This document shows, one piece after another, positions 30,206 through 51,921 of a stretch of 64,000 bases of DNA. This stretch comes from Syntrophomonas sp. (GTDB lineage: Bacteria > Bacillota > Syntrophomonadia > Syntrophomonadales > Syntrophomonadaceae). The first letter of the stretch is position 1. Every line of letters starts with the position of its first letter. The stretch spans positions 14,032 to 78,031 of the forward strand of contig JAENZE010000015.1 of assembly GCA_016841425.1 (NCBI GenBank). The letters run 5' to 3'. The notes beneath the pieces were generated by a model, which did no database searches, was not told the DNA's origin, and saw only the letters and a list, made by a program, of their open reading frames with translations. The translations under genes were made by a program, and so were the position numbers.

Positions 30206-30649
30206 GTCCTATACCTCCTTAAATTATATTAACTACATGGGAATCACTACTATCTATCAGGCAATTATGCTGCAAGAAACGTGCCGATGTATGTTTATAT
30301 TAACCTCAACTCATTTTTGGAAATTGGCAGAGTAATGCAACTGACTGGTTTTTTCAACCCGGAGGAAATGAAGGTATTAGAAAATAGCATAAGATAAGGT
30401 TGTACCAAATTGAGTTTGGGGATCGAAACCATATCTATTTTAAAATGAGTCAGATTTGATCAGAAATTAGTTAAAAATTAACGGGTGCGAGCGAGGGCTA
30501 TTTAGCTGGTGTATAAAGTGAAATTGTTCAAACCTTGATTTTAGGCTTTTTACTGGTTTTAATGGTTTTTAACATTAACTCTTAGCAAGTAAACTTAACA
30601 GGCAACCCATAAATGACTTGATGTGCAAAAGTTGAATTATCAGGGGTTT

Positions 30650-30681
30650 ACACGGGATTTGAGATAACCCCGTGTTTTTTT
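30650..30681 (+). terminator. orphan plus-strand rho-independent terminator in the nfnA / SDR intergenic region
   Basis: ACACGGG, 11-nt loop, CCCGTGT, then TTTTTTT. No annotated plus-strand gene lies upstream of it. Confidence 0.55.
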
Positions 30682-30819
30682 AAACCGAAAATGACTTATA
30701 AAGCATACTGAATTTACATCTGCTTACAATCAATTATATCCAACCTGGATGATAGAAAATGAACTGGCTAGCCATTAAAGAGAAGTTCCAGAGATGCGCA
30801 AAACCCCTTAATAAGGCAC

Positions 30820-30835
30820 TGGCATAGTATTTGCA
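30820..30835 (+). promoter_or_regulatory. sigma-54 promoter (-24 TGGCA / -12 TTGCA), operon 1
   Basis: TGGCATAGTATTTGCA has exact consensus spacing and lies 54 nt upstream of ATG 30889. The 21-mer TGGCATAGTATTTGCAATTTA is repeated at 41889. Confidence 0.85.
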
Positions 30836-30888
30836 ATTTATAAGGCAAAGTCCATATGCTTTAGAAATATTTTTGAGGAGGATAAAGA

Positions 30889-31722
30889 ATGTCGGAAAAG
30901 AAATTTGTCGATCCCTACGGTGTATTCACAACACGCATTGATGTTCCTGACACATTCCCTTCCAATTCAGATTTGTCAGGGAAAAAGGTCTTAGTAACGG
31001 GAGGTGGAAGAGGTCTCGGGGTAGGAATAGCTTTAGCATTTGCCGCTGCAGGTGCAGATGTTGCCGTTTCTGCTAGAACAGAGACTGATGTTAAAGAGAT
31101 TGCTAAGCGTATCGAAGCTAAAGGAGTTAAGGGTCTTGCCGTGGCCGGTAATGTTAAAGATGCTAAAAGTGTTCAAGAGATGATAGCTGCAGTGGTTGCG
31201 GAATTTGGCAGGATTGATGTTCTGGTCAACAATGCAGGCATCAGTCCATGGGTATTGCGCCCCGAAAAGTATACCGAAGAACAGTGGGATGAAATGATGG
31301 GTATTAACCTGAAGGGATGCTGGCTTTGTGCTAAAGAAGCATTTCTGCAATCAATGAAAGATCTTGATAAGGGCAGAATCATTAATACTGGTTCAGCTTT
31401 TGGTATGATTGGTGACCACCGCGTACTTCCTTATTGCTCCAGTAAAGGTGCGGTATTAAACTTTGCCCGGGCACTGGCGATAGACTGGGCTCCGTATAAT
31501 ATTACGGTAAACAACGTAGCTCCAGGATTTTTTGATTCCCCCCTCATCGAAGGCTATAAGAACAACGAAGCATTAGGTCAACAGATTCTGGACCGGGTAC
31601 CGCTGGGCCGCTGGGGAAGGATTGAAGAGCTGGTAGGAACTTATATATTTCTGGCATCAGATGCATCCAGCTTCATAACTGGCCAGACCATTTATGTTGA
31701 TGGCGGTATGACCATAATCTAA
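30889..31722 (+). CDS. short-chain dehydrogenase/reductase (SDR)
   Basis: TGGGRGLGVGIA cofactor motif, NNAG, and the catalytic YCSSK. Confidence 0.9.
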   Translation: MSEKKFVDPYGVFTTRIDVPDTFPSNSDLSGKKVLVTGGGRGLGVGIALAFAAAGADVAVSARTETDVKEIAKRIEAKGVKGLAVAGNVKDAKSVQEMIAAVVAEFGRIDVLVNNAGISPWVLRPEKYTEEQWDEMMGINLKGCWLCAKEAFLQSMKDLDKGRIINTGSAFGMIGDHRVLPYCSSKGAVLNFARALAIDWAPYNITVNNVAPGFFDSPLIEGYKNNEALGQQILDRVPLGRWGRIEELVGTYIFLASDASSFITGQTIYVDGGMTII

Positions 31723-31804
31723 TTCTAAGTACTTTCACAAGCAGAAGAATAATATGCACCAAGTAACAAGGCGAAATATTTAAGGAAAGGCAGGAAATTT
31801 TTAT

Positions 31805-32965
31805 ATGAACTTCGAGTTAACAGAAGAAGAACGATTAATAAAAAATATGACCAGGGTTTTTGCGAATGAAGTGATCATTCCTCAAATTGACGAATCATAT
31901 GAAACCAAAGAGTTTCCTCTTGGAATATTCCAGCAGATGGCTGACCTGGGTTTGATGGGGCTGAAGTATCCGGAAGAGTATGGCGGCAGTGGTGCAAGCA
32001 ATATGGCTTATATAACTGCTATGGAGGAAATAGCCAGGGGTGACTGTGGTGTAGGTCTAACCTGGGGAGTACATCAGACTTTAGGCAGCGTTTCGATCAT
32101 CAAGTTCGGAACTGAACAGCAAAAGGAAAAATATCTCCCCAAGATGGCTGCCGGGGAATGGCTGGGTGCCTTCGGGCTTTCTGAAGCTAATGCCGGTTCG
32201 GATAACCAGGGCATGGAATGTAAGGCCGAGCTTCAGGATGATGGAACATGGAAAGTCAATGGCACCAAGATGTTCATCAGCAACACCGGCACTCCCTTGA
32301 GCTTCGGGGGAATCTTCCTGTTTGTTACTGGCAAAACTCCAAGCGGAAAAAAGGAATTTACATCATTTATCGTAGATAAAGATACACCTGGATACAGCAT
32401 TGGAACGAAGTTTAAGAAAATGGGTTTTGACTGGGGCGACACCCGGGAGCAGATCTTCGAGGATTGTATTCTTTCCGATGAGCAGCGTTTAGGACCACGC
32501 GGTAACGGCTTTAAACAGATCATGGATACTCTTGATGCTGCCAGAATCGGATATGCTGCTAACAGCTTGGGTATGGCCGTACGTTGCTATGATGAAGCAC
32601 TAAAATATGGTAATGAACGCAAGCAGTTTGGACAAACCATTAACAGTTTCCAGGTTACCTCCTTTAAATTAGCCAATATGGCTACTAAAATCGAGCTGGC
32701 CAGACTTATGGTTCAAAAAGCAGCCTGGATGCGTGACAACAATATACCGCATACCAAAGAAGCGGCTATGGCCAAATATTATGCCTCTAAAATCTGTATG
32801 GAGGTAGCCAGCGAAGCGGTTCAGATCCATGGTGGCTATGGATTCTCGGAAGAATACCCGGTTTGCCGTTATTTCAGATATGGCAAGATGATGGAGATTG
32901 GTGAAGGTACCAATGAGATCAATCAGATAGTTATTTCTCGTCACCTTGGTATTGCTGGACTATAG
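31805..32965 (+). CDS. acyl-CoA dehydrogenase
   Basis: Full-length ACAD layout (GLSEANAGSD ..., a C-terminal catalytic Glu region IGEGTNEI). Confidence 0.9.
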   Translation: MNFELTEEERLIKNMTRVFANEVIIPQIDESYETKEFPLGIFQQMADLGLMGLKYPEEYGGSGASNMAYITAMEEIARGDCGVGLTWGVHQTLGSVSIIKFGTEQQKEKYLPKMAAGEWLGAFGLSEANAGSDNQGMECKAELQDDGTWKVNGTKMFISNTGTPLSFGGIFLFVTGKTPSGKKEFTSFIVDKDTPGYSIGTKFKKMGFDWGDTREQIFEDCILSDEQRLGPRGNGFKQIMDTLDAARIGYAANSLGMAVRCYDEALKYGNERKQFGQTINSFQVTSFKLANMATKIELARLMVQKAAWMRDNNIPHTKEAAMAKYYASKICMEVASEAVQIHGGYGFSEEYPVCRYFRYGKMMEIGEGTNEINQIVISRHLGIAGL

Positions 32966-32984
32966 ATGGAGAGGAGAGAGTCAC

Positions 32985-34307
32985 TTGAAAAGACCGTACA
33001 GGTATACTCATGACTGGAAAGAGGAATATAACAGAAAACTGGTATCTGCAGAAGATGCGGTTAAGGTAGTGAAGTCATTTGATCGGGTTTTTCTGCCTGG
33101 GTTTGGGGGAGATCCTCCAACTCTTTTAAATGAGTTAGCCAAACGTGGCAATGAGTTAGATGCAGTCGAGATTGTCAGCTGCAACCCGGTTATTCCATTT
33201 GAACACAGCAAACCGGAATACAACGGAATATTTATTGATAATCCGTGGTTTGTTGGTGCTGGAGCACGCAAAGCGGTTATGGAAGGAAGAGGAACCTATA
33301 CTCCAGTTAACTTTGGACATTATGCAAGATTCATGAAAGATGTCGAAATCAATGTGGGTATGATCATGGTTTCGCCTCCTGACAATTTCGGATACATGAG
33401 CTTTGGAATTATGACTGGTTATTCCCGCGCTATTATCGAAGAAGCAGATATCGTGATTTTGCAAATATCCGAACAACAGCCTAGATGTCTCGGAGACTGC
33501 TTTGTTCACGTTTCTGAAGTTGATTATATTGTAGAGGCTAACGATTCTATTCCAGCATTTTCAAAAGCACAAGCCTCAGAAATCGATAAAACGATGGCTG
33601 AAATTATTGCAGCAGAAATTGAAGATGGATCTACTATTCAGTTAGGAGTGGGGGGGACACCGAATACTGTAGGAATGCTTCTGGCCAGCAAACGCGAACT
33701 CGGTGTTCATTCGGAAATGATGATTGATGCATTTATTGATCTGCTGGAAGCTGGAGCTATCACCAATACCAAGAAGACCATGCATCCTGGCAAGTTCATC
33801 TGCACCTTCGCTGGTGGTACCCGTAAACTGTATGACTGGATGGATAATAACCCCCTGGTTGAAAATCATCCGGTTGGCTACACCAATGATCCTTATATAA
33901 TCGGCCAGCAATATAAGCAGGTCTCCATTAACGCTACCTTAGAGGTCGATTTGACTGGACAAGCCTGTTCAGAAAGTATTGGAACACGTCAATACAGCGG
34001 TTTTGGCGGACAGCTGGACTTTGTCAGAGGCTGTATGTTATCTCCCGGCGGCAAATCATTCTTAGTGGTACCTTCCACAGCTAACACCAAGGATGGAGTG
34101 GTATCCAGTATTGTGCCAACACTTAAACCCGGCGCAGGAGTGACAACACCCCGAGGTGACATACATCATGTAGTTACTGAATACGGTATGGTCAACTTGA
34201 GAGGCAAAAGTGTCAGACAGAGGGCCATGGATTTAATATCCATTGCTCATCCTGATTTCCGTGCGGAATTGAAAAAAGAAGCCCAACGCCTGTTGATGAT
34301 GCCCTAG
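32985..34307 (+). CDS. acetyl-CoA hydrolase/transferase family CoA-transferase (4-hydroxybutyrate / butyryl-CoA:acetate type)
   Basis: The family-typical blocks are present (GVGGTPN, GVHSEM, GFGGQLDF, VTEYG). The TTG start at 32985 lies 4 nt downstream of GGAGAGGAGAG. Confidence 0.8.
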   Translation: MKRPYRYTHDWKEEYNRKLVSAEDAVKVVKSFDRVFLPGFGGDPPTLLNELAKRGNELDAVEIVSCNPVIPFEHSKPEYNGIFIDNPWFVGAGARKAVMEGRGTYTPVNFGHYARFMKDVEINVGMIMVSPPDNFGYMSFGIMTGYSRAIIEEADIVILQISEQQPRCLGDCFVHVSEVDYIVEANDSIPAFSKAQASEIDKTMAEIIAAEIEDGSTIQLGVGGTPNTVGMLLASKRELGVHSEMMIDAFIDLLEAGAITNTKKTMHPGKFICTFAGGTRKLYDWMDNNPLVENHPVGYTNDPYIIGQQYKQVSINATLEVDLTGQACSESIGTRQYSGFGGQLDFVRGCMLSPGGKSFLVVPSTANTKDGVVSSIVPTLKPGAGVTTPRGDIHHVVTEYGMVNLRGKSVRQRAMDLISIAHPDFRAELKKEAQRLLMMP

Positions 34308-34708
34308 TTGTTGGGAACTTACAAATAAAATCCTTATTCAAATAATGATATGCAGCCATCTCGAAAATGTATGGTTGTGATCGCTTGGTCCACCAGGAGT
34401 TTAATCTGAAGACGGGGATAGGTTTCCTATCTGGGAAAATAATATATACAGAATTTATTGATTAAACGGACCAAATTAAATTTGAGGGAGAGGGGTGAGA
34501 GACGTTCACAAATCAATGCGATGTAAAATACCTGCTAACGGTAAATAAAGGAGGGATACACCAATAAATGGAGGTTATCGCTAATAATACAACTAGAGCC
34601 CGGTAGGGCAGGATATAAGTTAAGAGCGTAGCAAGTATTGAAATTCGAAATTGGTTTGCTTTGAATCAGGATAGGGTTCGCTGAAAAATGAAAGGGAGGA
34701 AGCTATCT

Positions 34709-36064
34709 ATGGAGAGAACTGTAACTCAGGAATTAGCCCGGTTTGCTGTAAATCTTAAATACGAGGACATTCCCCTTAATGTAATAGACAAGGTGAAAAC
34801 CTGTATTTTGCATGGTACTTGTATCGGCCTGGCAGGAATGGATATTATATTTGGCAAAATTGCCCGGGCTCAGATCAGTAAAGCTCCCACTGCAATTGGA
34901 AATGGGTCTGTAACACTCCTTGGAGATGGTGCCAAGGTAGCAGTCATGGATGCAGCCTTTGCCACCAGTGTTTTGTATCATGGCAGGGTTCAGGAAGATA
35001 CCCATGGCACAACTCATATAGGAGCTATCAGCATTCCTCTGGCAATTGCCCTCGCCGAAATGAACGGTCAGACTGGAAAGGATGTTATTACTGCCCTTGC
35101 CGCAGCCTACGAGGTAGGAGGTGCACTGGGCAAAGATTACACTGCCCTGACAACTCCCAGAGGGTGGAGAGCCAGCTCTATTTATGGCATTTTTAGTGCT
35201 GCCACCGTTGCCGGTGTTTTAATGGGACTTAATGAAGAGGAGATGACTAATGCATTAGGCCTGGCCAGTGCATTTGCATTTGGAACTACGGAGAGTTTTA
35301 AAGCCGCAACTATGGAATGGCGGTTCGAAGTTGGACTGGCCGCAAGAAATGGTTATCTGGCAGCAGTATTGGCCAAAGAGGGTGCACTAGCCGCGGCTAA
35401 TGCAATGGAAGGCGACATGGGTTTCTTCAGAGCTTTTGCGGGAACTCGTGAGAACCTTGATAAGATCACCGAAAATCTCGGCAAGGTGTGGGAGACCAAC
35501 AACGTAACCTTCAAGCTTTATCCGGTGTGTGCATTCAACCAGACCCAGGTTATAAACAGCATCTCATTGGCGTCAGAAAATGACCTTGATCCGGCTAAGA
35601 TTACTTCAATAGAAGTTAATATGAGTGAATATGAGGCTAATTATCCCGGGCAGATGAATTGGGGCCCCTTTTCTGCCCATGCCGGAACATTAATGAGCGC
35701 ACCGTTTTGTGTAGCAGCTTCCTTATTAAATAGAAGATTGACTTTATCTGATCTGCATCAGTTTGAGGATTCTACTATTCTGGAGCTGGTCAACAAAACC
35801 AAAATAATTCCCAATCCCGAAATTGGATTCCTTTGTTCACGCATTGTGGTTACCCTGGAAGATGGAACGGTAGTAGAACGTCCTATGAATGTTACAGAAC
35901 AGTACTATAATTTGGATTTTGCCAGGGATGTTGAAATGATGAGGACTATGAAGGACGAAATTGCAATTTCGGATGAGAAATTGGAAGATCTTATCGCTAT
36001 TGTAGGCACTCTAGAACAGCAAGAAAACATGAACGCATTTGTCAATGCAACACTAGTAGATTAA
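34709..36064 (+). CDS. MmgE/PrpD family protein (2-methylcitrate dehydratase superfamily, specificity unknown)
   Basis: N-terminal ELARFAVNLKYEDIP, and a length and layout typical of PrpD-family proteins. ATG follows GGGAGGAAG. Confidence 0.8.
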   Translation: MERTVTQELARFAVNLKYEDIPLNVIDKVKTCILHGTCIGLAGMDIIFGKIARAQISKAPTAIGNGSVTLLGDGAKVAVMDAAFATSVLYHGRVQEDTHGTTHIGAISIPLAIALAEMNGQTGKDVITALAAAYEVGGALGKDYTALTTPRGWRASSIYGIFSAATVAGVLMGLNEEEMTNALGLASAFAFGTTESFKAATMEWRFEVGLAARNGYLAAVLAKEGALAAANAMEGDMGFFRAFAGTRENLDKITENLGKVWETNNVTFKLYPVCAFNQTQVINSISLASENDLDPAKITSIEVNMSEYEANYPGQMNWGPFSAHAGTLMSAPFCVAASLLNRRLTLSDLHQFEDSTILELVNKTKIIPNPEIGFLCSRIVVTLEDGTVVERPMNVTEQYYNLDFARDVEMMRTMKDEIAISDEKLEDLIAIVGTLEQQENMNAFVNATLVD

Positions 36065-36107
36065 TATGGGTCAGGTTCCTGAAATAGCTTGGTAGGAGTG
36101 ATAACTT

Positions 36108-36635
36108 GTGGGTTTGTATCAATTTGAAAACTATGTACCCAGGGTCGACTCATCGGCATACGTTCATCCGGAGGCAGTACTAATTGGTGATGTCAGTATC
36201 TCCAGGAATTGTTATATTGGACCGGGTGCATCGATACGGGCTGATTGGGGGAGCATCACTATAGGACCGGGTTCTAATATTCAGGACCGAGTTGTTATTC
36301 ACGTTAAACCAGAACACTCAGTAATCCTTGGAGCTAATTCACACATTGGACATGGTGCTATCCTGCATGGACCATCTCTGGGATTCCATGTTTTTATAGG
36401 CATGGGTGCCATCATAATGGACGGAGCAGAATTGGGTGACAATTGCTGCATAGCTGCAGGGACTCTTATCCCTGGTGGAATGAAAATACCAGCTAACAAA
36501 CTTGTTAAAGGCGTTCCCGGCAGGATTGTTTCAGACGTATCCTTGGAAATGGCGGCAGCATTAGAAACAGCAACAAAGCACTATCAAACCCTGACTGAAC
36601 GGTGCCTTAAGGGAATGAGAAGAGTCAACTTTTAG
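36108..36635 (+). CDS. gamma-carbonic-anhydrase-like / PaaY-CaiE hexapeptide-repeat protein
   Basis: Left-handed beta-helix repeats. The N-terminus YVHPEAVLIGDVSI resembles PaaY/CaiE. GTG start 9 nt after AGGAG. Confidence 0.75.
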   Translation: MGLYQFENYVPRVDSSAYVHPEAVLIGDVSISRNCYIGPGASIRADWGSITIGPGSNIQDRVVIHVKPEHSVILGANSHIGHGAILHGPSLGFHVFIGMGAIIMDGAELGDNCCIAAGTLIPGGMKIPANKLVKGVPGRIVSDVSLEMAAALETATKHYQTLTERCLKGMRRVNF

Positions 36636-36690
36636 TTAAACAGTTGGTGGGGAATTAATAATATTGTTATTTATAGAGGAGGTTTTACAT

Positions 36691-38022
36691 TTGTCTACTA
36701 AAGTTGCGGAAAAAGCTTGGGGATATCGCCACATAATACTGCTGGTAGTATGGGGATTATATCTGATAAATTACCTGGATAGGATAGCAGTTCTGACATT
36801 TCTGCCTTATATTAAAGAAGATCTAAACCTAACTACGGTTCAGGTCGGGTGGTTAGGATCAATATTCTTCTTTGGATATGCTTTAGCCCAATTTTCAGCA
36901 GGTTTCTTAAGTGATAAAATTGGTGCTAAAAAAACCATGGGCATTGCCATAACGGTCTTCACTGGAGTTACCTTTTTGACTGGTTTAGTTCAGAATTTCA
37001 CACAATTCATTATACTGCGTCTTGGTCTGGCTCTGGGTGAAGGTCACCATTATACCCCTGCAATTAGAGCACTTGCCGACTGGATGCCTAACCATGAGAA
37101 AGGAAGAGCCAGTGGTTTCTTTGCTACTGTTTTTGGATTCGCTCCTATGCTGACTCCATTAATAGTAACCTCTATTGCAGTCGCATGGTTTGGTGGTGCA
37201 TGGAGACCGGTATTCTTCTGCCTGGCAGTACCCGGTGTTATTGGAATATTCATACTTTGGAAGTTTATGCATAATACACCGAGCGAAGGACTTGCGAAAG
37301 GCGTTGTAAGACAAGGCGAATACGATATGATCGTAGATTCTATTGGCCAGGATCAAAAAATCACTGGTGTTAACTACAGTACCAAATTGATCTTTGGAGA
37401 TAGTAAATTTTATTTATATTCCATTGCCTGGTTCATGCAGCTGATGATTTACTGGGGAATGACCACCTGGGTGGCATTTTTCCTGGTAACTGCGCATGGA
37501 TTTAATATCAAAACTATGGGTATCCTGGCAGGTGTTCCCTACGCTGCCGCCATTTTGGCCCAATTTTTGGGTGGGATTGTTGCGGATAAATGGTTCCAGG
37601 GACGCCCCCGCATTGTCTGCGTTATAGCTTTCCTGGGCTGCATCCCATCTCTGTATTTCCTGGGTCAGGTGCCCTCGGGCAGCATAACTCCATTGGTAAT
37701 ACTGTTGGCACTTTGCGGGTTCTTCATTAACTTCAACTGGGGTGTTATCCAGTCATATCCTTCTTATAGATATCCCAGAGAAATCGTAGGACGCGCTATG
37801 GGTATTGCCAACGGGGTTGGTCAGTTTGGTTCCTTTGTTTCCCCTATGATTGCTTCATACCTGATCATTACCAATGCCGCTGGTGTTAGTGACTTTTCCC
37901 GGGTTTTCTTCTTCTGGGCAATAGCTGCAGCAGTAGCAGCAACCGCATTCTTCTTCCTGAAGGAAGAAGCTATCGATGCAGAACCATACAAAATTGTTAG
38001 CGAGAAGAAATTAGCTTCCTAA
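36691..38022 (+). CDS. MFS transporter (anion:cation symporter-like)
   Basis: 12 TM segments and a DRIAVLTFLP ... SDKIGAKKT loop motif. TTG 36691 follows GAGGAGG. Confidence 0.8.
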   Translation: MSTKVAEKAWGYRHIILLVVWGLYLINYLDRIAVLTFLPYIKEDLNLTTVQVGWLGSIFFFGYALAQFSAGFLSDKIGAKKTMGIAITVFTGVTFLTGLVQNFTQFIILRLGLALGEGHHYTPAIRALADWMPNHEKGRASGFFATVFGFAPMLTPLIVTSIAVAWFGGAWRPVFFCLAVPGVIGIFILWKFMHNTPSEGLAKGVVRQGEYDMIVDSIGQDQKITGVNYSTKLIFGDSKFYLYSIAWFMQLMIYWGMTTWVAFFLVTAHGFNIKTMGILAGVPYAAAILAQFLGGIVADKWFQGRPRIVCVIAFLGCIPSLYFLGQVPSGSITPLVILLALCGFFINFNWGVIQSYPSYRYPREIVGRAMGIANGVGQFGSFVSPMIASYLIITNAAGVSDFSRVFFFWAIAAAVAATAFFFLKEEAIDAEPYKIVSEKKLAS

Positions 38023-38042
38023 ACGCAGTTTGATATCCTGTT

Positions 38043-38090
38043 ATGTATTGTGCAGCTAAAAGTGCTGCACAATACATATCTTTGTATTTA
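38043..38090 (+). terminator. rho-independent terminator ending operon 1
   Basis: Perfect 14-bp stem ATGTATTGTGCAGC / GCTGCACAATACAT followed by a T-rich tail. Confidence 0.8.
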
Positions 38091-38130
38091 GGAAGGAAAT
38101 AATAGAAAAGGGACGAGAGGTGTAATACTA

Positions 38131-38358
38131 ATGTCAGAATTAATATTTTCTTCATCATTTGTAGTCGCTACAGTTCTTTTAATTACTTCTGTAGTGGTAG
38201 TCTTTGTTTGGGATAGGAAGTACATTACTAGAACCTGTGATCAATGTAATCGTGCTAATTTTATTCCTAAACGGGATCCTTTTTTTAATTGTAAATATTG
38301 TGGGTATGATTTGGATGCCAGAGCTAAGGAAGCATTGCTTAAAGAAAGCATTGGATAG
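38131..38358 (+). CDS. small membrane-anchored zinc-ribbon protein (75 aa)
   Basis: One N-terminal TM helix, then CDQC ... CKYC. A GAGAGG-type RBS lies upstream. Confidence 0.5.
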   Translation: MSELIFSSSFVVATVLLITSVVVVFVWDRKYITRTCDQCNRANFIPKRDPFFNCKYCGYDLDARAKEALLKESIG

Positions 38359-38472
38359 CAGTAATAATTATCATTCTAGAATAAACTTATTTTGCTTGTA
38401 AATTGACGGAATAGCTGTAATATTATAATTAAATGTCGATTGTTGAAAACAGGTATTAAGCGGGGTGGAAAA

Positions 38473-40503
38473 ATGCTAAGTGCTATTGATTTTAGGGATG
38501 CTACCTACCCAACATTTACTCCAGATGTACCAGTATATGAAGCAATAGACATACTAAGTGATGTAAATGAATCAATTGGGTTTGTTGTTCAGGATGGCAA
38601 ACATTTAGGAACCTTCAGGCTGACAAGGAATAAAATTGAACAACTACCAGCTAACTCTCGTGTTTCCGATATCATTATTCGTAATTATCCTACCATTTTA
38701 CCAGATACCCCCATTTACCAGCTCGGTTTAAAGAGTCTGCTTCCGGTGCCTCTTGTGAGTGCGCAGGGATTTTTCTATGGGGTAATCCAACCTGCTACAG
38801 TATTTTCCTTCTTTCAGATGTTTGGTGCAACACAATACGGAGAAATTCATAATCAACTGAGCGTTGGGGTGATCTTTGAAAGTGCGGAAGGATTAATCAC
38901 ACAGATCAACAGCACGGCCATTAAACTGCTTGGTGTTGAAGCTAAAGATGTTCTGTTTCAACCTCTAGCCCAGGTTATTCCAGAAGTCGATCATGATGAA
39001 TTGTGCAAGATACGAAAAAATATACAGAGGCATGGAAAGGTAATTGATCTGAAAAGAAATATGGTGGAATTAAAAGGGCGTCAAATAGGATGGATGACTT
39101 TATTGGAGGACATCTCCAGCCTGGTTAATGTTACAGCTGAGCTGTCAGGTTTCCATAATCTCACGGAGGAGATTGAAACAATTTTTCGGTATGCCAGTGA
39201 AGGACTGTGTATAATCAATAATAATGGCGTGATTTTGAAGAGTAATGATGCTTTATGTAATGTTATGGGAGCGCCTCAAGATCATATTGAAAATCGACAT
39301 GTAAAAGAATTGAAAATGGATGGAATTATTGATAAATCGATTGCTGAGACAGTATTATCTAAAAAAGCCGAAGTAACCATCACCCAAAAATCAAAAAAGC
39401 AAAATCAATGGTTAACTACTGGAAGGCCAGTTTTTAATAAAGAAGGGAATATAATCTATGTAGTTTCAACTGCCAGAGACGTAATTAAGACGAATAGAAT
39501 GTATCGAGCGGCCGGGGTAAAGCGGGATAAGTACACGTTTCTTGACATTGAAACCAGGCAGGTACTTGATAAGGTTGGCATCATAGGTGAAAGCAAAAGT
39601 ATGTCCAACATTATAGGTGTGGTTTCCCGAATTGCTAATTCTTCCGCAACAGTACTTATTCAAGGTGAGTCTGGTACGGGGAAAGAATTGATTGCCAGGC
39701 TCATTTATGAACTAAGCGACAGGAGATTCGGTGGAAAATTTATAGGCGTGAACTGTGGAGCCTTGCCCAGAGAACTTCTGGAGGCTGAACTCTTCGGATA
39801 TGTGGGAGGAGCTTTTACCGGTTCCAAAAAAGAAGGTAAAAAAGGCCTTTTTGAACAAGCCAACAAAGGGACGATATTCCTGGATGAAATCGGTGATATG
39901 CCTTATGACTTACAGGTTAAACTTTTGAAAGCCGTTGAATATGGGGAAATCGCCAAGGTTGGAAGTGCTGAAACGATAAAGGTAGATACCAGAATCATTG
40001 CTGCTACCAATCAAAATTTACAGAGTATGGTTGCCGATGGAACCTTCCGGGAAGATCTTTTTTATCGGCTCAATGTAATCCCCATATTTGTACCGCCGTT
40101 AAGGGAGCGGCGAGAAGATATAGTAAGCCTGTACGCTTACTTCATTGATATGTTTAACAAAAAGTATAATAGCGACAAAGAGTTTTCTGTTAGAGCTCAA
40201 AATATACTGCAGAACTATAAATGGCCCGGAAATATCCGGGAAATGAAGAATCTGGTAGAAAGGTTGGTTCTTACAACGGAAGCTGATATTATATGTGAGG
40301 AAGATTTACCGATTCAAATACTTGAGACACGGGAAATCTTTGAAAAACAACCAGAATGCTCGCTGAGGCAAGCAATGGAAGATGTTGAACGTCGTATTAT
40401 TTTAGATGCCTACAATCGTTATGGCAGCACTTATAAGGTTGCCGAGGCATTGGATATCAGTCAAACATCCGTTGTTCGAAAACTGAATAAATATCTTCAA
40501 TAG
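38473..40503 (+). CDS. sigma-54-dependent transcriptional activator (CBS pair, two PAS, AAA+ sigma-54 interaction domain, Fis-type HTH)
   Basis: Walker A GESGTGKE, a GAFTGS sigma-54 contact loop, Walker B FLDEIG and a C-terminal HTH (STYKVAEALDISQTSVVRKL). Confidence 0.9.
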   Translation: MLSAIDFRDATYPTFTPDVPVYEAIDILSDVNESIGFVVQDGKHLGTFRLTRNKIEQLPANSRVSDIIIRNYPTILPDTPIYQLGLKSLLPVPLVSAQGFFYGVIQPATVFSFFQMFGATQYGEIHNQLSVGVIFESAEGLITQINSTAIKLLGVEAKDVLFQPLAQVIPEVDHDELCKIRKNIQRHGKVIDLKRNMVELKGRQIGWMTLLEDISSLVNVTAELSGFHNLTEEIETIFRYASEGLCIINNNGVILKSNDALCNVMGAPQDHIENRHVKELKMDGIIDKSIAETVLSKKAEVTITQKSKKQNQWLTTGRPVFNKEGNIIYVVSTARDVIKTNRMYRAAGVKRDKYTFLDIETRQVLDKVGIIGESKSMSNIIGVVSRIANSSATVLIQGESGTGKELIARLIYELSDRRFGGKFIGVNCGALPRELLEAELFGYVGGAFTGSKKEGKKGLFEQANKGTIFLDEIGDMPYDLQVKLLKAVEYGEIAKVGSAETIKVDTRIIAATNQNLQSMVADGTFREDLFYRLNVIPIFVPPLRERREDIVSLYAYFIDMFNKKYNSDKEFSVRAQNILQNYKWPGNIREMKNLVERLVLTTEADIICEEDLPIQILETREIFEKQPECSLRQAMEDVERRIILDAYNRYGSTYKVAEALDISQTSVVRKLNKYLQ

Positions 40504-40549
40504 GAAAATTAACTCTGCAATATCCCTCTGAATCTGTATGGTTGGTCTT

Positions 40550-41365
40550 TTAAATAATACTGTGCCAGGTATGGTTAATTTTCTTAGCCAGGCCAATCCT
40601 ATCCATATTTATAATATTAATGTTTTTTTCTGATTTTTCAATTAACACCCGTTCCTCTTTGTTCAGGCAACGGATATTTTCTCCATCCAGGGATATATCT
40701 GTAGTAAATTCACAGTATGAGGATATGGTCACTTGAGTGTCTGAATTTACTATCAGAGCTCGGCCAGAGGACAAGAGGGGACAAATAGGTGTGAGAACCA
40801 GCGCTTTAACATTTTCAGCCAGCACCGGACCACCTGCTGAATATGAATAAGCTGTTGATCCGGCAGGTGTTGCGCAGATCAGTCCATCCCCCCTATAGAT
40901 GGAGCAGGTCTGATTATCGATGGAAATACCTATGGTGATTGGACGCACGGCCTTAGATCTAATAACCACCTCGTTAAGAGCCACACCCAACTCTACCCGC
41001 TGCCCTCCGCTTATAAGCTCAGCCTTAATCAGTAGGTATTTATCGAGAGTATATTGAAACTTTATGAGTTTGTCCAAAGCCATTGACCAATCATCTGGTT
41101 CTATGCTGCTTAAAAATCCAATTTTACCCAGATTAACTCCTAATAGAGGAATTCCCGTCCCGGCCAGGTGATGGGCAGTTTTTAGAATAGTTCCATCTCC
41201 CCCTAAAACTAAAATTATATCATTACTGCTAAGATCGATATGGTCACTTATTTTACGACTTTCCAAGGCAGATACTATAGCTCCTTTATCTGCCAGGTCT
41301 TCACTAAAACGCTGGCTCAGTTGATATGCTCGTAAGTCGCTTTTATGGATTATCAAGACTTTCAC
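40550..41365 (-). CDS. nadK: NAD kinase
   Basis: GGDGT motif, the NE...I region and the ATPAGSTAYSYSAGGP motif. GTG start. Confidence 0.9.
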   Translation of the reverse strand: MKVLIIHKSDLRAYQLSQRFSEDLADKGAIVSALESRKISDHIDLSSNDIILVLGGDGTILKTAHHLAGTGIPLLGVNLGKIGFLSSIEPDDWSMALDKLIKFQYTLDKYLLIKAELISGGQRVELGVALNEVVIRSKAVRPITIGISIDNQTCSIYRGDGLICATPAGSTAYSYSAGGPVLAENVKALVLTPICPLLSSGRALIVNSDTQVTISSYCEFTTDISLDGENIRCLNKEERVLIEKSEKNINIINMDRIGLAKKINHTWHSII

Positions 41366-41888
41366 GATTAAACACCTTTCTTTATATCCATTTTTATTTA
41401 CCGATAATGACTTAGGAGGTTCGGTATGATTAAAATCTTAATAATTGTTTCTGTTTATTGGATGTGCAATAAATGTGCCAATCCCAATGATTGAAGGTCT
41501 GCACAACTGCTTTATATTCGAGGTCCAAGCAGGGGGTTTTATCAGATATCTGCTTGGAGCATACCCGGCGAGGATCATTCTATTAGTCTGCACCTATGAT
41601 TAGGAAAGAGGGAAATACAGGTTCTTATGAAGTAACCCAAAAACGACTTGGGCCGAAAAAGCACGAATCTTTGGGAGTTTAGACAATATTAAGGATAAGT
41701 TGATCAGTTAGCAAACCGACTTTGACTCGGTACCGAAACTTAAAAATAGATTTTCATCTCCTCTCTGTTGTTGATGAGAATAACCTGCAAATCAAACAGA
41801 TTATGAAAGGCCCGTAAAAGGCTATTTATAGGGAAAGTCATGAAAGAGTGAGGACTGTTTTTACTGCAGTTTTCACTCTTTTTGGATT

Positions 41889-41904
41889 TGGCATAGTATT
41901 TGCA
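41889..41904 (+). promoter_or_regulatory. sigma-54 promoter (-24/-12), operon 2
   Basis: The same TGGCATAGTATTTGCA, extended to an identical 21-mer, lies 53 nt upstream of ATG 41957. Confidence 0.85.
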
Positions 41905-41956: not shown

Positions 41957-42925
41957 ATGAAAGATATCAGGTATATATTCGCTATTAAGGAGGCCATGCA
42001 AGAAGAAATGGAGAGAGACGAAAACGTTTTTCTCATGGGTGAAGATGTAGGTCTTGCAGGCGGGTCATTTGGAGCAAGTAAGGGTCTTTTTGAGAAATTT
42101 GGAGAGAAAAGGGTCATTGATACTCCCATCAGTGAGGCCGGTTTTACATCATTGGCGGCAGGAGCCGCATCCTGTGGGCTAAGGCCGATTATTGAGATTA
42201 TGTTCATGGATTTCGTTACCTGTTGTATGGACAGCGTGGTCAACCAAATTGCTAAGATGCGTTATATGTTTGGAAATCAATATGCTATGCCAATCGTTGT
42301 AAGAATGCCAGAAGGAGGCGGGCAAAACGCAGGCCCACAGCATTCCCAGTGTTTAGAAGCCTGGTTTGCACATGTGCCGGGGCTTAAAGTGGTTATGGCT
42401 GCCAACCCTTATGATGTAAAAGGGCTTCTTAAATCGTCTATTCGCGATGATAACCCGGTTATTTTTATCGAAAATAAGACCCTGCATGCTATGAAAGGTC
42501 AGATTCCGGAAGAAGATTATCTGATTCCCCTTGGTAAAGCGGATGTAAAAAGAGTGGGTAGTGATGTAACTGTTGTCACAGCATCGCGCCTGGTAAACGA
42601 TTCGCTAAAAGCTGCAGAACAGCTTGAGAAAGAGGGTATTAGTGTTGAGGTTGTAGATCTTATGACTATTCAGCCCTGGGATAGGGAAACTGTTTTTGAT
42701 TCGATAGGAAAGACTCACCGATTGGTGGTAGCGCACGAGGCAGTTAAACAGTTTGGGTTCGGAGCCGAGATATCAGCAGCTGTCAATGAAGAATTGTTTG
42801 ACGAATTGGATGCTCCAATTTTCAGGGTAGGTGCACCCTTTGTTCCGATTCATTACAGTCTTGAGAAAGCTTATGTGCCGGGAGTTGAAGATATTAAAAA
42901 AGCTGTCATAGCTGCTATGGGGTAA
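41957..42925 (+). CDS. thiamine-diphosphate-dependent dehydrogenase E1 component, beta subunit (acetoin / 2-oxoacid dehydrogenase type)
   Basis: Transketolase-like pyrimidine-binding and C-terminal domains (GEDVG ... DTPISE ...). ATG follows AAGGAG. Confidence 0.85.
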   Translation: MKDIRYIFAIKEAMQEEMERDENVFLMGEDVGLAGGSFGASKGLFEKFGEKRVIDTPISEAGFTSLAAGAASCGLRPIIEIMFMDFVTCCMDSVVNQIAKMRYMFGNQYAMPIVVRMPEGGGQNAGPQHSQCLEAWFAHVPGLKVVMAANPYDVKGLLKSSIRDDNPVIFIENKTLHAMKGQIPEEDYLIPLGKADVKRVGSDVTVVTASRLVNDSLKAAEQLEKEGISVEVVDLMTIQPWDRETVFDSIGKTHRLVVAHEAVKQFGFGAEISAAVNEELFDELDAPIFRVGAPFVPIHYSLEKAYVPGVEDIKKAVIAAMG

Positions 42926-42963
42926 GTCTCTGTATATTAGGAGAATATTAGGAGGTAATAATA

Positions 42964-44016
42964 ATGAAAGCTGCCGTTTGGTATGGTAAGGAAGACGTCA
43001 GAATAGAAAATTATCCTGAACCCTCGGTGGAAAAAGGACAGGTTAAACTCAAGATAAAAGCTTGTGGTATCTGTGGGTCAGATCTACATGAGTACAAAGA
43101 TGGCCCCTTCGTTATTCCCGCCAGACCTCACCCCCTAACCGGAAGGGCACTGGGACCAGTTGTAGTAGGACACGAATTTGCCGGTGAGGTAGTTGAGATT
43201 GGTGAAGGCGTGACAAACTGCAAAGTCGGAGATCGGGTTACTGTAAATCCTTTAGTATATTGTGGTGAATGTCACTATTGTAAAAAAGGCGAGTATATCA
43301 TGTGTACCAAGCTAGGTACAGCAGGATTCGCCTGCGATGGCGGTTTTGCTGAGTATGGAGTTTTCCCGGAATACGGAATACACAAACTGCCAGATTCAGT
43401 CAGTGATGACGTGGGGTGCTTTGTCGAACCTGTAGCTGTTGCACTGCATGCCGTTAATCGGAGTCGTATGAAGGTTGGAGCTAGTGTGGCGGTAATCGGA
43501 GCAGGACCCATAGGGCTATTAGTATTGCAATGCTGTCTGGCAGCTGGTGCCAAGGAGGTTTTTGTCAGTGAACCCATGCAGGCGCGGCGTGAATTGGCAG
43601 CCAAATTGGGCGCAACAGCGGTCTTTGATCCTACCCAATGCGATGTAGGAAAAGAGATCGGCAAGTATACCGATGGTCTTAAAGCGGATTGGGTTTTTGA
43701 ATGCGTAGGAAACCAGATCACTTTTGATACAGCGGTTAAGGTAGGCGGCAGAAGAGCAATCATTTGTATTGTAGGCCTGGCATTAAAACCCATCGAAGTG
43801 CCGTTCTTACGCTTATGGGGACAAGAAAAGGAGATAGTATTTTCTTCAGGTTATAATGATGAGTTTCCCACCTGCATAAGTTATCTAGCTGACGGTAGGG
43901 TGAAGGTGGAAGAAATGATAACGGCCAGGATTGGTTTGGATGACTATGTGGAAAAGGGAGTTAAGGAACTTATCAATAATGGGGACCAGCAAATTAAAAT
44001 ACTGGTCACCATGTAA
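42964..44016 (+). CDS. zinc-dependent medium-chain alcohol/polyol dehydrogenase (butanediol/sorbitol dehydrogenase-like)
   Basis: GICGSDLH, GHEFAGEV, a structural-zinc Cys cluster (CGECHYCKKGEYIMC) and GAGPIGL. Confidence 0.85.
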   Translation: MKAAVWYGKEDVRIENYPEPSVEKGQVKLKIKACGICGSDLHEYKDGPFVIPARPHPLTGRALGPVVVGHEFAGEVVEIGEGVTNCKVGDRVTVNPLVYCGECHYCKKGEYIMCTKLGTAGFACDGGFAEYGVFPEYGIHKLPDSVSDDVGCFVEPVAVALHAVNRSRMKVGASVAVIGAGPIGLLVLQCCLAAGAKEVFVSEPMQARRELAAKLGATAVFDPTQCDVGKEIGKYTDGLKADWVFECVGNQITFDTAVKVGGRRAIICIVGLALKPIEVPFLRLWGQEKEIVFSSGYNDEFPTCISYLADGRVKVEEMITARIGLDDYVEKGVKELINNGDQQIKILVTM

Positions 44017-44114
44017 AAACAAATAAAATCTATCCAGCTTTGTTGTCCAGATCATCCAATCATATGCAAGACTGACTAATGATACAACTTAGCTGGTTGG
44101 AGAGGAGGAAGGCC

Positions 44115-44897
44115 ATGAAAGCATATAAAACAATCATTGTAGAAAAAAAGGAAGGCATCGGTATTCTAACTCTTAATCGTCCCGAGGTTTTCAATGCCAT
44201 TAGTCAGGAATTAATCGATGAAATGCGAGATGCATTGCGGAATATAAATCTGGATGATGAAATAAAGGTTCTCATTATAACTGGTGCCGGCAAGGGATTC
44301 CAGGCTGGAGCCGATATCAAGGAATTGAGTGAAATGGCTCCTATAAATATACTTCGTTGGAATGAAGGACTGGTAAGAGTTATAGCAGCATTAGAGAAGT
44401 TAAGACAACCTGTTATCGCAGCGATTAATGGCTTGGCTCTGGGTGGCGGACTTGAACTTGCTTTAGGATGCCAGATTCGTATTGCAGTTACTGGAGCCAA
44501 ACTCGGACTTCCCGAGGTTAAGCTTGGCATAATACCGGGAACGGGTGGAACACAGCGACTTCCACGGATCATTGGAAAAGGTCTGGCTTATCAAATGCTG
44601 CTGACTGGTGATCCTATAGATGCTGAGGAAGGATTACGCATCGGCTTAATCAACAAGGTAGTTCCTAAAGGGGAAGTACTGAAGGCAGCAGAAGAGATGG
44701 CTCAAAAGATCGTATGCAATGGTCCGATAGCCCTGGAACTCTGCAAGGACGCAGTTGAGATTGGTATGGATTTGCCTCTGGAACAAGCCGTACAGTATTC
44801 CCAGAAGAATTGCGTAACCTGTTTTAGCACGGAAGACATGAAAGAGGGGACCACTGCCTTCATTGAGAAACGTAAAGCCGAGTTTAAGGGAAAATAA
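44115..44897 (+). CDS. enoyl-CoA hydratase/isomerase (crotonase) family protein
   Basis: The GAGKGFQAGADI oxyanion motif and the GGGLELALGCQIRIA plus PEVKLGIIPG motifs. Confidence 0.9.
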   Translation: MKAYKTIIVEKKEGIGILTLNRPEVFNAISQELIDEMRDALRNINLDDEIKVLIITGAGKGFQAGADIKELSEMAPINILRWNEGLVRVIAALEKLRQPVIAAINGLALGGGLELALGCQIRIAVTGAKLGLPEVKLGIIPGTGGTQRLPRIIGKGLAYQMLLTGDPIDAEEGLRIGLINKVVPKGEVLKAAEEMAQKIVCNGPIALELCKDAVEIGMDLPLEQAVQYSQKNCVTCFSTEDMKEGTTAFIEKRKAEFKGK

Positions 44898-44916
44898 TAG
44901 TAAAGGAGTAAAACAA

Positions 44917-46170
44917 ATGCCTATAAATATCGTAATGCCTAAATTAGGTTTAACCATGGAAGAAGGATTAATTACGGAATGGGTTAAGAAAGAAGGCGAT
45001 TCCGTTACCAAGGGCGATATCCTTTTTATCATGGAAACAGAGAAGATTACTCAGGAGGTTGAAGCCCCTCAGGATGGTATATTAGCCAAAATAGTAGCAC
45101 AGGCACAGGAAACAGTTCCGGTTGGTGAAACAGTAGCTTATATGCTGGAACCCGGAGAAGATCCTGCCAGTATTCCAGCTGCGGGCGCAGCACAAGCAGT
45201 AAGTGCAGCTGTAGAAGAAAAACCAACGATAATCGAAAATATACCCCAGAATCAGTCTGCAGCGGGTGCGGGTTCCAGAATTAAAGCTAGTCCGCTGGCC
45301 AGGAAAATAGCTAAATCCTATAATCTGGATCTATCTCAAGTTATAGGAACAGGTCCCTCAGGCAGAATCGTTGCAGCAGACGTTGAAAAAGCTTACGAGT
45401 CAGGAACATTAACACCTGCAGCATCTGCAGCAGCGGCACCAATGGCAACTACACCAGCTGAGTCTGATGTTGAGCTTGAGGCTGGACAAACCCTGGTTCC
45501 TTTCACCGGTATGCGGAAGGCTATAGCAAAGAATATGCTCGCCAGCAAGCATGAGGCAGCTTCGACTTATATGTACAATACGGTGGATGCCAGCAAGATC
45601 CAGGAAATGCGTGAAACACTATTGCCTTATGTGGAGAAAAAGTATGGTGTACGTATCACTGTTACAGATTTGATGATGAAAATTACAGCTATTGCACTTC
45701 GCGAACATCCGGTTCTCAATACCCGCTGGACTGAAAAAGGGATCATCTATAATTCTAAAGTGAATATGGGTATGGCAATGGCTCTTGACGAAGGATTAAT
45801 CGTGCTTTCTATTAAGGATATAAACTCCAAGAGTATAGGACAGATAGCATCAGACAGAGTTGCTTTAATTAATAAGGGTAAAACTAATAGCTTTGGCCCG
45901 GACGATATATCAGGCAGTACCTTTACGCTGTCATCATTAGGCATGACCGGCCTGGAGCAATTTGTAAGCATTATCAATCAGCCGGAAAATGCCATTTTAG
46001 CAGTAGCGGCCATCATTGATAAACCGGTTGTGGTTGACGGTGAGATCGTGATCCGGCCTATGATGAATGTCAATCTGACCTATGATCACAGGGTGATCGA
46101 TGGGGCAGAAGCAGCCAAGTTTATGATGACCCTTAAAGAGTATATCGAAAATCCGATATTGGCTGTGTAA
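44917..46170 (+). CDS. dihydrolipoamide acyltransferase E2 component
   Basis: Lipoyl domain (METEKITQEVEAP), an Ala/Pro linker, a peripheral subunit-binding domain (ASPLARKIA) and a catalytic DHRVIDG. Confidence 0.9.
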   Translation: MPINIVMPKLGLTMEEGLITEWVKKEGDSVTKGDILFIMETEKITQEVEAPQDGILAKIVAQAQETVPVGETVAYMLEPGEDPASIPAAGAAQAVSAAVEEKPTIIENIPQNQSAAGAGSRIKASPLARKIAKSYNLDLSQVIGTGPSGRIVAADVEKAYESGTLTPAASAAAAPMATTPAESDVELEAGQTLVPFTGMRKAIAKNMLASKHEAASTYMYNTVDASKIQEMRETLLPYVEKKYGVRITVTDLMMKITAIALREHPVLNTRWTEKGIIYNSKVNMGMAMALDEGLIVLSIKDINSKSIGQIASDRVALINKGKTNSFGPDDISGSTFTLSSLGMTGLEQFVSIINQPENAILAVAAIIDKPVVVDGEIVIRPMMNVNLTYDHRVIDGAEAAKFMMTLKEYIENPILAV

Positions 46171-46259
46171 ACAACATTAATCTCATTAAAATTCCATAAT
46201 AAGTTGAGGTCAATTCTTGAAGGGAAGGAATTTAATGAAATGTGCTTAGGAGGATGGAA

Positions 46260-47642: not shown

Positions 47643-47820
47643 GAATCAACTAGATTCTAAATAGATAATAATAGCAAAGAGCGACATTGTATAACGGTAG
47701 GTATCCTTGATCTTATATTTGTTATAGAGCAAATCTAGAATGGGTGCCTATCAAATAGCAACACAAGTGAGAGTATCGAAACAACAGGATTGTATATGCA
47801 AAATGGAAGGAGAATATTTC

Positions 47821-51113: not shown

Positions 51114-51921
51114 ATAGAATAAAGGGCTTAAAGCATACTACGTGAAGGCTCTCTTATACCTATTATCGGGTTACCTGGGTTTATCGTTTGGTAAAATGGC
51201 TATTTCGAGACCCCCTCCTCGATTTTAGCCATCAAATGATAAACTCAGTTTTAATAAACTATAGTCCATACCGGATTATTAAGTAATGTATGGGAGTCAG
51301 TAAAAACTTTGTCATTAAATGAATAGTGAATTAATGGGAGCCTAAAATACCATGTCTTAGCATCTCGAACTACCAAATCTTTGTAATCATTTTAGCAACC
51401 TGCATGGCTCTTTACCTATCCAATACGTGCGATATCAAGTCGTTTAAAGTGTTTTCTTCCTTGTAATATTATGGAAAATACAGAAAAAGGGGGTCACTGA
51501 ATATATCAGTAACCCCAAAAGGAAGAGTTTAAATGTTAAATGAACTTGTAAGCAAATTGATTGCTTTCTCTTATTGTTTATGCAATTTGTATGCCAAATA
51601 AAATGGATTAATCACCTTGCCAGGTTAGTATTCAAGAAGCCTTAATCGATTATCAGGCGATATCGATTATGTTGTTCCAGAAGAAAAATCTTAAAGCTTA
51701 GCATTTGTCACGATTGTAAATGTAATATGTCATGGATAATGCATATTTATACATTGTTGAAGCAGCAAACAAGGCATTAATGACTTGGTTAGATCGCAGT
51801 TATTTAAACATAATTGGCGAAACAGAGAATAATAAACCGATATTGACTTGCTTGCTTGTATAAGTCCTGTCATGATGCTGAGCCAAAACAGAAAAGAGTA
51901 CATTTTATGGAGGTTTGTGAC

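Follow-up and report, generated by a model that had tools for sequence, protein, structure and literature searches.

Does the enhancer-binding protein encoded between two identical sigma-54-type promoters control the operons that those promoters precede, and if so, through which sites does it reach them? The question is raised by a 64,000-nucleotide (nt) stretch of a Syntrophomonas sp. genome (contig JAENZE010000015.1, positions 14,032 to 78,031; hereafter the window, numbered from its first letter), in which the activator gene (38473..40503, +) is preceded by one catabolic operon (operon 1, 30889..38022) and followed by another (operon 2, 41957..48780). We think it likely that a local sigma-54 regulon of this Syntrophomonas-like bacterium is under one enhancer-binding protein, a one-component activator that would be made constitutively. 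Support comes throughout from comparing the window with related loci, namely that of the metagenome-assembled genome (MAG) Syntrophomonas sp. B5_bin.5 (L001), two from a hydrocarbon metagenome (L002 and L011) and others from sequencing runs (L004/L005 and L012).

Twin promoters and a shared upstream element

A search of the window finds exactly two copies of TGGCATAGTATTTGCAATTTA, at 30820-30840 and 41889-41909, both on the + strand; no third copy appears in the window even when up to three mismatches are allowed, and 100 shuffles gave 0 matches. The GG and GC of the 21-mer are separated by 10 nt, the -24/-12 spacing, so that exact search and spacing agree with the initial annotation, which had described 21-nt-identical copies with perfect -24 GG and -12 GC elements 53-54 nt upstream of genes with strong ribosome-binding sites. 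Measured from the end of the 16-nt core, the distance to the start codon is 54 nt for copy 1 (core end 30835, ATG at 30889, ribosome-binding site GAGGAGG) and 53 nt for copy 2 (core end 41904, ATG at 41957, ribosome-binding site AAAGGAG), with transcription predicted to start at about 30846 and 41915, respectively. Exact matches to TGGCAY-N5-TTGCW number six in the window against 0.24 expected (25-fold enriched), five of the six being intergenic; they include 30820, 41889, 41480 (-) and 51596 (-), while the match at 59094, within an oxaloacetate decarboxylase beta gene, is put down to chance. Profile scans of the genes in the 64-kb window did not find rpoN.

Conservation argues in the same direction. 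In the syntenic loci of four relatives, which are Syntrophomonas MAGs or metagenome contigs, both operons have a -24/-12 promoter, and the full 21-mer is invariant in 6/6 copies across the window, L001 and L002, where the surrounding intergenic DNA is 72-82% identical. The L004/L005 promoters are TGGCATAGTAATTGCA and TGGCATATTAATTGCA, the latter being the operon 1 variant of L005; they differ from one another at 2 positions and keep GG-N10-GC. The more distant L012 has the identical 16-mer at operon 2 and again at a second promoter, and among GTDB representative genomes the 21-mer occurs in Syntrophomonas sp. B5_bin.5 only, exactly twice. These comparisons support the view that both copies behave as sigma-54 promoters.

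Why should the identity run to exactly 21 nt, with flanking bases (c/t on the left, t/a on the right) that already differ? The five bases past the 16-nt core correspond to positions -11 to -6 and are AT-rich. This is the stretch of the promoter that the sigma-54 holoenzyme has to open, and its retention therefore fits promoter function and does not need a recent duplication. The initial annotation had read the extended identity as duplication or strong co-selection, and the first of these finds no support: with the 21-mer left out, local alignment of the upstream regions gives 24, against 18.8 +/- 2.4 (maximum 27) for shuffled sequence, and the spacers are identical at 23/62 positions, a value that 91/2000 shuffles equal or better. 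Likeness outside the motifs is thus not significant.

Alignments of the upstream regions (four genomes for operon 1, three for operon 2) reveal two sharply conserved blocks in each, and the conserved element is a 19-nt asymmetric motif, [GA]YAAMCCRANAWYGACTYR. All 16 instances (four genomes, two operons) are in + orientation and form direct pairs with a spacing of 76-79 nt; measured from the -24 element, the nearer copy is 124-176 nt upstream and the farther one 200-255 nt. At operon 1 of the window, site A (GCAACCCATAAATGACTTG, 30602..30620, +) lies 216 nt upstream of -24 in a block that is invariant in four genomes and scores 27.1 bits with a position weight matrix (PWM), and site B (TTAAACCGAAAATGACTTA, 30680..30698, +) follows 78 nt past it, 138 nt upstream of -24. 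At operon 2, site A (GTAACCCAAAAACGACTTG, 41632..41650, +) is 255 nt upstream of -24 and site B (GCAAACCGACTTTGACTCG, 41711..41729, +) follows 79 nt further on, at 176 nt. When the PWM of the 19-mers was run over both strands of the window (128 kb), the only score above 11 bits elsewhere fell at 51834 (21.6 bits), and the exact degenerate motif is found 5 times in the window against 0.15 expected. A dyad was considered and rejected: partial palindromes occur in two operon 2 sites (CCCAA-N7-TTGGG and ACCGA-N7-TCGGT) and not in the operon 1 sites, for which reason we treat the 19-mer as asymmetric. We infer that the 19-mers are putative binding sites for the activator, conserved as pairs.

Different sites had been proposed before, namely TCATCT...GATGA half-sites at 30714-30757 and 41753-41778. 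These are indeed present at both places, and they fade in relatives: the operon 1 copy is lost in L001, L002 and L005, the operon 2 copy is lost in L002 (TAATA...GCTGA), and the half-sites are also lost in L004; the operon 2 copy is retained in L001. Separately, a hairpin with a T-run (ACACGGG...CCCGTGTTTTTTT, 30650-30681, +) lies between sites A and B of operon 1, and L001 and L002 have hairpins of different stem sequence at the equivalent position. It may provide insulation from transcription arriving from upstream or play a structural role in the enhancer region.

A further promoter faces away from operon 2. The sequence TGGCACATTTATTGCA (41465..41480, -) lies about 100 nt before a gene of the NAD-kinase family (40550..41365, -) and 154 nt from operon 2 site A, forms an invariant alignment block and is matched exactly in L001 and L002, which supports a conserved sigma-54 promoter serving the NAD-kinase-like gene. 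Both operon 2 activator sites sit between the divergent promoters, in the same intergenic region. Of the two-operon regulon that had been postulated, both operons therefore stand, and the number does not, given this promoter and a third motif-plus-promoter module described below.

An intact activator with a degenerate CBS pair

The regulator is a protein of 676 amino acids (aa), with ATG 38473 as its most likely start, in which a degenerate CBS pair (~11-118), PAS1 (~128-225) and PAS2 (~233-340) precede a sigma-54 AAA+ domain (370-538), an AAA lid and a helix-turn-helix (HTH) domain, HTH_50 (629-674). Pfam matches include Sigma54_activat (PF00158, 2e-66), AAA_lid_14, two PAS regions and HTH_50 (2e-12); the AAA+ domain contains both GESGTGKE (Walker A) and GAFTGS, and G446, F448, T449 and G450 are invariant among 21 homologues. 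Pfam and NCBIfam scans found no receiver domain, so the protein is best read as a one-component activator, and profile scans found no second sigma-54 activator in the window. The sequence thus supports an intact one-component sigma-54 enhancer-binding protein between the promoters. Here most of the initial annotation holds, including the activator motifs, an input other than a phosphorelay, the two PAS domains and a C-terminal HTH, although the Fis type assigned to the last is less secure, as HTH_8 reaches 20.4 bits, just below its 22-bit cut-off. A conserved TATAAT-type box upstream of the gene suggests expression by sigma-70.

The sensor calls for more caution. The Pfam CBS match is below threshold (20.7 bits against a gathering cut-off of 24), yet 19/21 co-linear full-length homologues match PF00571 (best 5e-27), a profile of the family's N-termini retrieves solved CBS pairs, and in an AlphaFold2 (AF2) model of residues 1-122 (pLDDT 82.6, from an alignment that includes the CBS-matching homologues) the top Foldseek matches are all CBS pairs, with TM scores of 0.65-0.76. 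By these models the N-terminus has a genuine CBS-pair fold, and a degenerate one. The N-terminal domain scores 12.8 bits against a profile of paralogues, and the ribose-phosphate motif G-h-h-T/S-x-x-D/N, which reads GLFTKSH and GIITRSD in paralogues, is deleted or replaced in both repeats of the regulator's clade (GTF---RLT and GVI-QPAT). With both canonical ligand-binding motifs lost, nucleotide input through the CBS pair, as had been suggested, is doubtful. Domain identity between orthologues that are 54% identical overall is 65% for PAS2, 42% for the CBS pair and 35% for PAS1; PAS2, as the best-conserved sensor domain, is therefore most likely the ligand sensor, judging from these comparisons.

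At the other end of the protein, the recognition helix of the C-terminal HTH, ISQ(T/S)S(V/A)VRKL, is constant in the orthologue clade and unlike that of paralogues, which fits a clade-specific binding site. Among 5.8 billion proteins searched, only three further clusters come close to the regulator (88, 87 and 54% identity), and the next relatives are at 35%. The best NCBIfam match of residues 229-674 is PrdR (NF041552), at 416 bits against a cut-off of 795.

Directly upstream of the regulator gene is a small open reading frame (ORF) of 75 aa (38131..38358, +), whose predicted product has a hydrophobic helix at its N-terminus and ends in a zinc-ribbon-like CxxC...CxxC tail. Its counterparts in L001, L002 and L004 have 75, 75 and 73 aa, the conservation pattern is coding-like, and the ORF adjoins the regulator gene in all four orthologous loci. 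The product may be a partner of the regulator. Paralogous regulators (L008) have Com-like zinc-ribbon ORFs following them.

The probable target genes and a third module

What would such a regulon do for the cell? Operon 1, assigned from Pfam, NCBIfam and PDB matches, encodes on the + strand a short-chain dehydrogenase/reductase (SDR, 30889-31722), an acyl-CoA dehydrogenase (31805-32965), a CoA-transferase of the 4-hydroxybutyrate/butyryl-CoA:acetate type (32946-34307), a divergent MmgE/PrpD-family protein (34688-36064) that weakly resembles IRG1/IDS epimerase (65 bits), a PaaY/CaiE-like hexapeptide protein (36108-36635) and a major facilitator superfamily (MFS) anion transporter (36664-38022). 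Gene order is the same in L001, L002 and L005, and an intrinsic terminator with a 15-bp stem and T-rich tail (38042..38078, +), kept in L001 and L002, ends the operon. Within it, the 380-nt non-coding gap between the CoA-transferase and PrpD-like genes (34307-34688) is retained in all relatives; it contains strongly conserved blocks (e.g. GAGAGACG.TCACAAATCAATG.GATGTAAAATACCTGCTA.CGG) and yielded no Rfam match, conserved ORF, RNAalifold structure or covariation.

Operon 2, also on the + strand, encodes E1 beta (41957-42925), a Zn-dependent alcohol dehydrogenase (ADH, 42964-44016), an enoyl-CoA hydratase (ECH) or crotonase (44079-44897), a lipoyl E2 (44863-46170), an E3 dihydrolipoyl dehydrogenase (46242-47642) and E1 alpha (47740-48780), in an order shared by L001, L002, L004 and L012. 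After a 549-nt gap, into which L001 has a methyl-accepting chemotaxis protein (MCP) gene inserted, follow genes for a lipoate-protein ligase (49329-50312, +) and a DUF6125 protein (50367-51113, +), which may be part of operon 2. In type, the E1 subunits are 'y' (pyruvate/acetoin): PDH_E1_alph_y gives E1 alpha 319 bits (cut-off 394), against 226 bits for the 'x' type. The acetoin E2 model NF011457 reaches 101 bits against a cut-off of 307, over the lipoyl part only. The best relatives of E1 alpha have generic names and a different genomic context, and the best plasmid matches likewise offer a generic name only.

The SDR, acyl-CoA dehydrogenase, crotonase and CoA-transferase are a short-chain acyl-CoA branch, and the enzymes together suggest that an acetoin-like compound, a 2-oxoacid or a short-chain acyl-CoA is broken down. 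Our best guess is that an imported short-chain hydroxy-, oxo- or diol compound is catabolised; confidence in any specific substrate is low. The NAD-kinase-like protein (271 aa) falls below all NadK equivalog cut-offs and resembles ordinary NadK at 32-36% identity; its gene is present in L001 and L002 and absent from L004 and L012.

The 51834 hit of the PWM scan, which has a weaker partner at 51771, belongs to a third module beyond operon 2. A pair of sites on the + strand (51769..51850), a weak one (GCAAGGCATTAATGACTTG, from 51769) and a strong one (ATAAACCGATATTGACTTG, 51832-51850, 21.6 bits), lie 63 nt apart and 175 (weak) and 238 nt (strong) from a sigma-54 promoter with the exact pattern, TGGCATACAAATTGCA (51596..51581, -), that, like the core sequence and terminator of the module, is conserved in L011/L032. 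No ORF was found after this promoter, and an intrinsic terminator (51516..51490) follows, such that the predicted product is a candidate small RNA of about 90 nt (51478-51569, -) with a 5' hairpin and a single-stranded ACAUUUAAACUCUUCCUU. The L011 locus (11100-11224, -, with sites at 11378-11463 scoring 15.6 and 21.8 bits) retains every part, from both sites and the promoter to a pyrimidine-rich core of 18 nt and the terminator. The window and L011 versions share a fold in which about 32 nt of single strand separate a 5' hairpin from the terminator (z = -4.8 and -2.7). Rfam gave nothing in the locus, either at gathering thresholds over the whole window or at E <= 1 over 30000-54000, and a metagenome scan with the 18-nt core returned 28 matches, 27 of them chance and 1 from the L002 organism.

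The shared sites argue that this third module probably belongs to the regulon and drives the candidate small RNA. We propose more tentatively, as a possibility that could easily prove wrong, that it represents a sigma-54- and activator-dependent, trans-acting small RNA of about 90 nt, with a pyrimidine-rich, anti-Shine-Dalgarno-like ACAUUUAAACUCUUCCUU, in a catabolic regulon of a Gram-positive syntroph whose activator reads an asymmetric 19-mer in phased direct repeats and not a dyad. No sigma-54-dependent small RNA is known to us from outside the Gram-negative bacteria, where Qrr1-4 under LuxO and GlmY/GlmZ are examples. Like these, the module combines a -24/-12 promoter with upstream activator sites ahead of a short, terminated, putatively non-coding transcript; unlike them, the candidate is in a Firmicute, has no Rfam family and is known from two genomes.

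Mechanism, rival explanations and relation to known systems

Taken together, these features can be arranged into the following model. The clade-specific HTH_50 domain of the regulator would bind the asymmetric 19-nt [GA]YAAMCCRANAWYGACTYR at paired direct copies 76-79 nt apart, and a small-molecule signal, most likely sensed by PAS2, would free the AAA+ domain. By analogy with the family, the activator would then contact, as a hexamer and by looping, the sigma-54 holoenzyme waiting at TGGCATAGTATTTGCA, and its GAFTGS loop would couple ATP hydrolysis to opening of the AT-rich -11 to -6 stretch. Its targets would be operon 1, operon 2, the divergent NAD-kinase-like gene and probably the small RNA at 51478-51569, a set that would import a short-chain hydroxy-, oxo- or diol compound and oxidise it to acyl-CoA.

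Several points weigh against this model. All of its support is sequence comparison, and the orthologue set is small: five related organisms, with four regulator clusters at >=54% identity among 5.8 billion proteins. The 19-mer lacks the dyad form that most known activator sites have (TGT-N10-12-ACA), and the motif was built from the same loci used for its scoring, for which the fifth site, its orthologue, and conservation in a clade with a regulator only 54% identical provide independent support. The target strand of the third site pair is ambiguous, because a conserved 124-aa ORF on the + strand (51907-52281; L011 11514-11888, 77% identity) starts 73 nt past it; this ORF, which has no Pfam or NCBIfam match, resembles only the N-terminal Rossmann part of SDR proteins. 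Lastly, no NCBIfam equivalog cut-off that names a substrate-specific enzyme was reached in the operons (only the generic E3 and the lipoate ligase pass theirs), and the pathway is therefore a guess.

It is also conceivable, if improbable, that the promoters depend on sigma-54 while the 19-mer is bound by another factor (a repressor, an architectural protein or a second activator) and the regulator acts elsewhere. Asymmetric direct repeats are indeed unusual for enhancer-binding proteins (PMC6615313), and the window contains other sigma-54 promoters (53553 and 30286) that lack the 19-mer and so are presumably served by other activators. Yet the 19-mer co-occurs with the regulator gene in every genome, falls within the 100-250 nt zone typical of activator sites and tracks the clade-specific recognition helix, and the locus has no second conserved regulator gene. 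We give still less credence to a regulon of exactly two operons whose activator uses the TCATCT...GATGA half-sites and senses a nucleotide through its CBS pair: the half-sites exist upstream of both operons, one of them is kept in L001 and the N-terminus does have the CBS-pair fold, but this reading would have to accommodate half-sites that disappear among relatives while a far better conserved 19-mer is available, a third and probably a fourth promoter in the set, and a G-h-h-T/S-x-x-D motif deleted or replaced in both CBS repeats of a domain that scores 12.8 bits against the paralogue profile. That the 21-mers are not promoters and are instead direct repeats left by duplication or site-specific recombination around an 11-kb insert can be set aside almost entirely, since the fact that identical direct repeats bracket 11 kb is opposed by the absence of an integrase or transposase between them, by their unrelated flanks, by a -24/-12 match in both at equal distance from RBS-preceded starts, by L004/L005 copies that vary at 2 positions around a constant GG-N10-GC, and by synteny of the arrangement in all relatives.

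How does the proposed regulon of the one-component activator compare with described systems? In Clostridiales, one-component PAS activators, some with CBS domains, are as a rule found beside sigma-54 catabolic operons with several sites 100-250 nt upstream (PMC6615313), as exemplified by PrdR, CrbR, AcoR and LeuR with the promoter TTGGCAT-N5-TTGC (Nie et al. 2019, PMC6615313). The present locus follows this rule in that the regulator gene adjoins its targets, the sensors are PAS (CBS) domains, there is no receiver and there are multiple upstream sites. It departs from it in that none of the 39 reconstructed regulons matches its gene content or motif and in having an asymmetric direct-repeat 19-mer where TGT-N10-12-ACA is described, and Syntrophomonas is missing from the distribution column of the regulon table (PMC6615313). 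Unlike those of PrdR, the target genes here are unrelated to proline reductase.

Another parallel may be the control of acetoin catabolism by sigma-54 and AcoR, as for acoXABC in Cupriavidus necator and Pseudomonas putida, where aco clusters require AcoR/RpoN (PMC10107126) and AcoX is a predicted NAD kinase (PMC9676059). Our locus shares with such systems a sigma-54 promoter with a dedicated activator, a thiamine pyrophosphate (TPP)-dependent E1 alpha/beta, a lipoyl E2, an E3 and an NAD-kinase-family gene, and its Zn-dependent alcohol dehydrogenase could be a butanediol dehydrogenase. The corresponding acetoin system of Bacillus subtilis is acoABCL-acoR. Unlike AcoR, the regulator finds its best matches in PrdR and TyrR-type proteins, no AcoR model being among the best 25 of its 26 NCBIfam matches; E1 and E2 stay below every specific cut-off, and neither the E1beta-ADH-ECH-E2-E3-E1alpha order nor the second operon has a counterpart in aco clusters. 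AcoX was considered as an identity for the NAD-kinase-like gene and not adopted, as the protein resembles ordinary NadK. The branched-chain keto-acid dehydrogenase operon of B. subtilis, controlled by BkdR and sigma-54 (SigL), likewise places a 2-oxoacid dehydrogenase (E1-E2-E3) with acyl-CoA-handling enzymes under a PAS activator and sigma-54; it differs in that here E1 alpha is nearer the 'y' type, ptb/buk and leucine dehydrogenase are missing and the sensor architecture is another one.

By these comparisons the locus is well supported as a catabolic regulon of a fatty-acid-degrading anaerobe, though an ordinary one, and since its regulatory logic is textbook sigma-54 biology, nothing fundamental is changed; less ordinary are an asymmetric putative site in phased direct repeats and what may be an activator-dependent small RNA. 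It nevertheless provides a concrete, testable unit in the genetically hard Syntrophomonas, in which one regulator and one 19-nt site go with three to four promoters and a defined set of genes, and it ties a lipoyl complex of the pyruvate/acetoin-dehydrogenase type, unexpected in a strict beta-oxidation anaerobe, to an inducible pathway. Identifying the inducer of the PAS sensor would reveal the substrate of that pathway.

Other sigma-54-type promoters lie nearby. One (30271-30286, -) precedes a gene pair of NfnAB type, sulfide/dihydroorotate-dehydrogenase-like plus gltD-like, that recalls the 'YglR: hyp-gltD' regulon (PMC6615313); its sequence runs CGGCAC... in the window, and L001 (1154-1169, -) and L002 (1714-1729, -) have the exact TGGCACG-N4-TTGCA. 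Another, at 53538-53553 (-) and conserved in L011 at 13111 (-), belongs to a gene for a metallo-beta-lactamase (MBL)-fold hydrolase (52688-53458, -). In the distant relatives L004 (8609-9373) and L012 (1467-2228) an MBL gene replaces the NAD-kinase-like gene, divergent from operon 2 and with a weak TGGTAT-N5-TTGCA upstream, which hints at a functional link between the MBL gene and the regulon. These two relatives also have an extra sigma-54 promoter (L004 7933-7948, +; L012 754-769, +) before a gene for a 60-aa membrane protein, between the regulator and MBL genes; its 16-mer in L012 is identical to that of operon 2, and 230-290 nt upstream there is a partial motif, ATAATGACTTG, with 15.5 bits in L012.

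The nearest paralogues of the regulator, at 35% identity and with a canonical CBS pair, are found in Syntrophomonadaceae (L008 8001-17679; L009 8001-17240), where these CBS-PAS-PAS proteins adjoin operons for thiolase, 3-hydroxyacyl-CoA dehydrogenase, crotonase, acyl-CoA dehydrogenase and CoA-transferase (thl-hbd-crt-acd-CoA-transferase). No canonical -24/-12 pattern was found before these operons in L008 and L009, and we therefore make no claim about the paralogues' targets. Near the end of the window, a cyclic di-GMP (c-di-GMP-I) riboswitch (62517-62600, +), scoring 69 bits against an Rfam gathering threshold of 35, lies upstream of a gene for a peptidase M15 (D-Ala-D-Ala carboxypeptidase-like) protein at 62751-63551.

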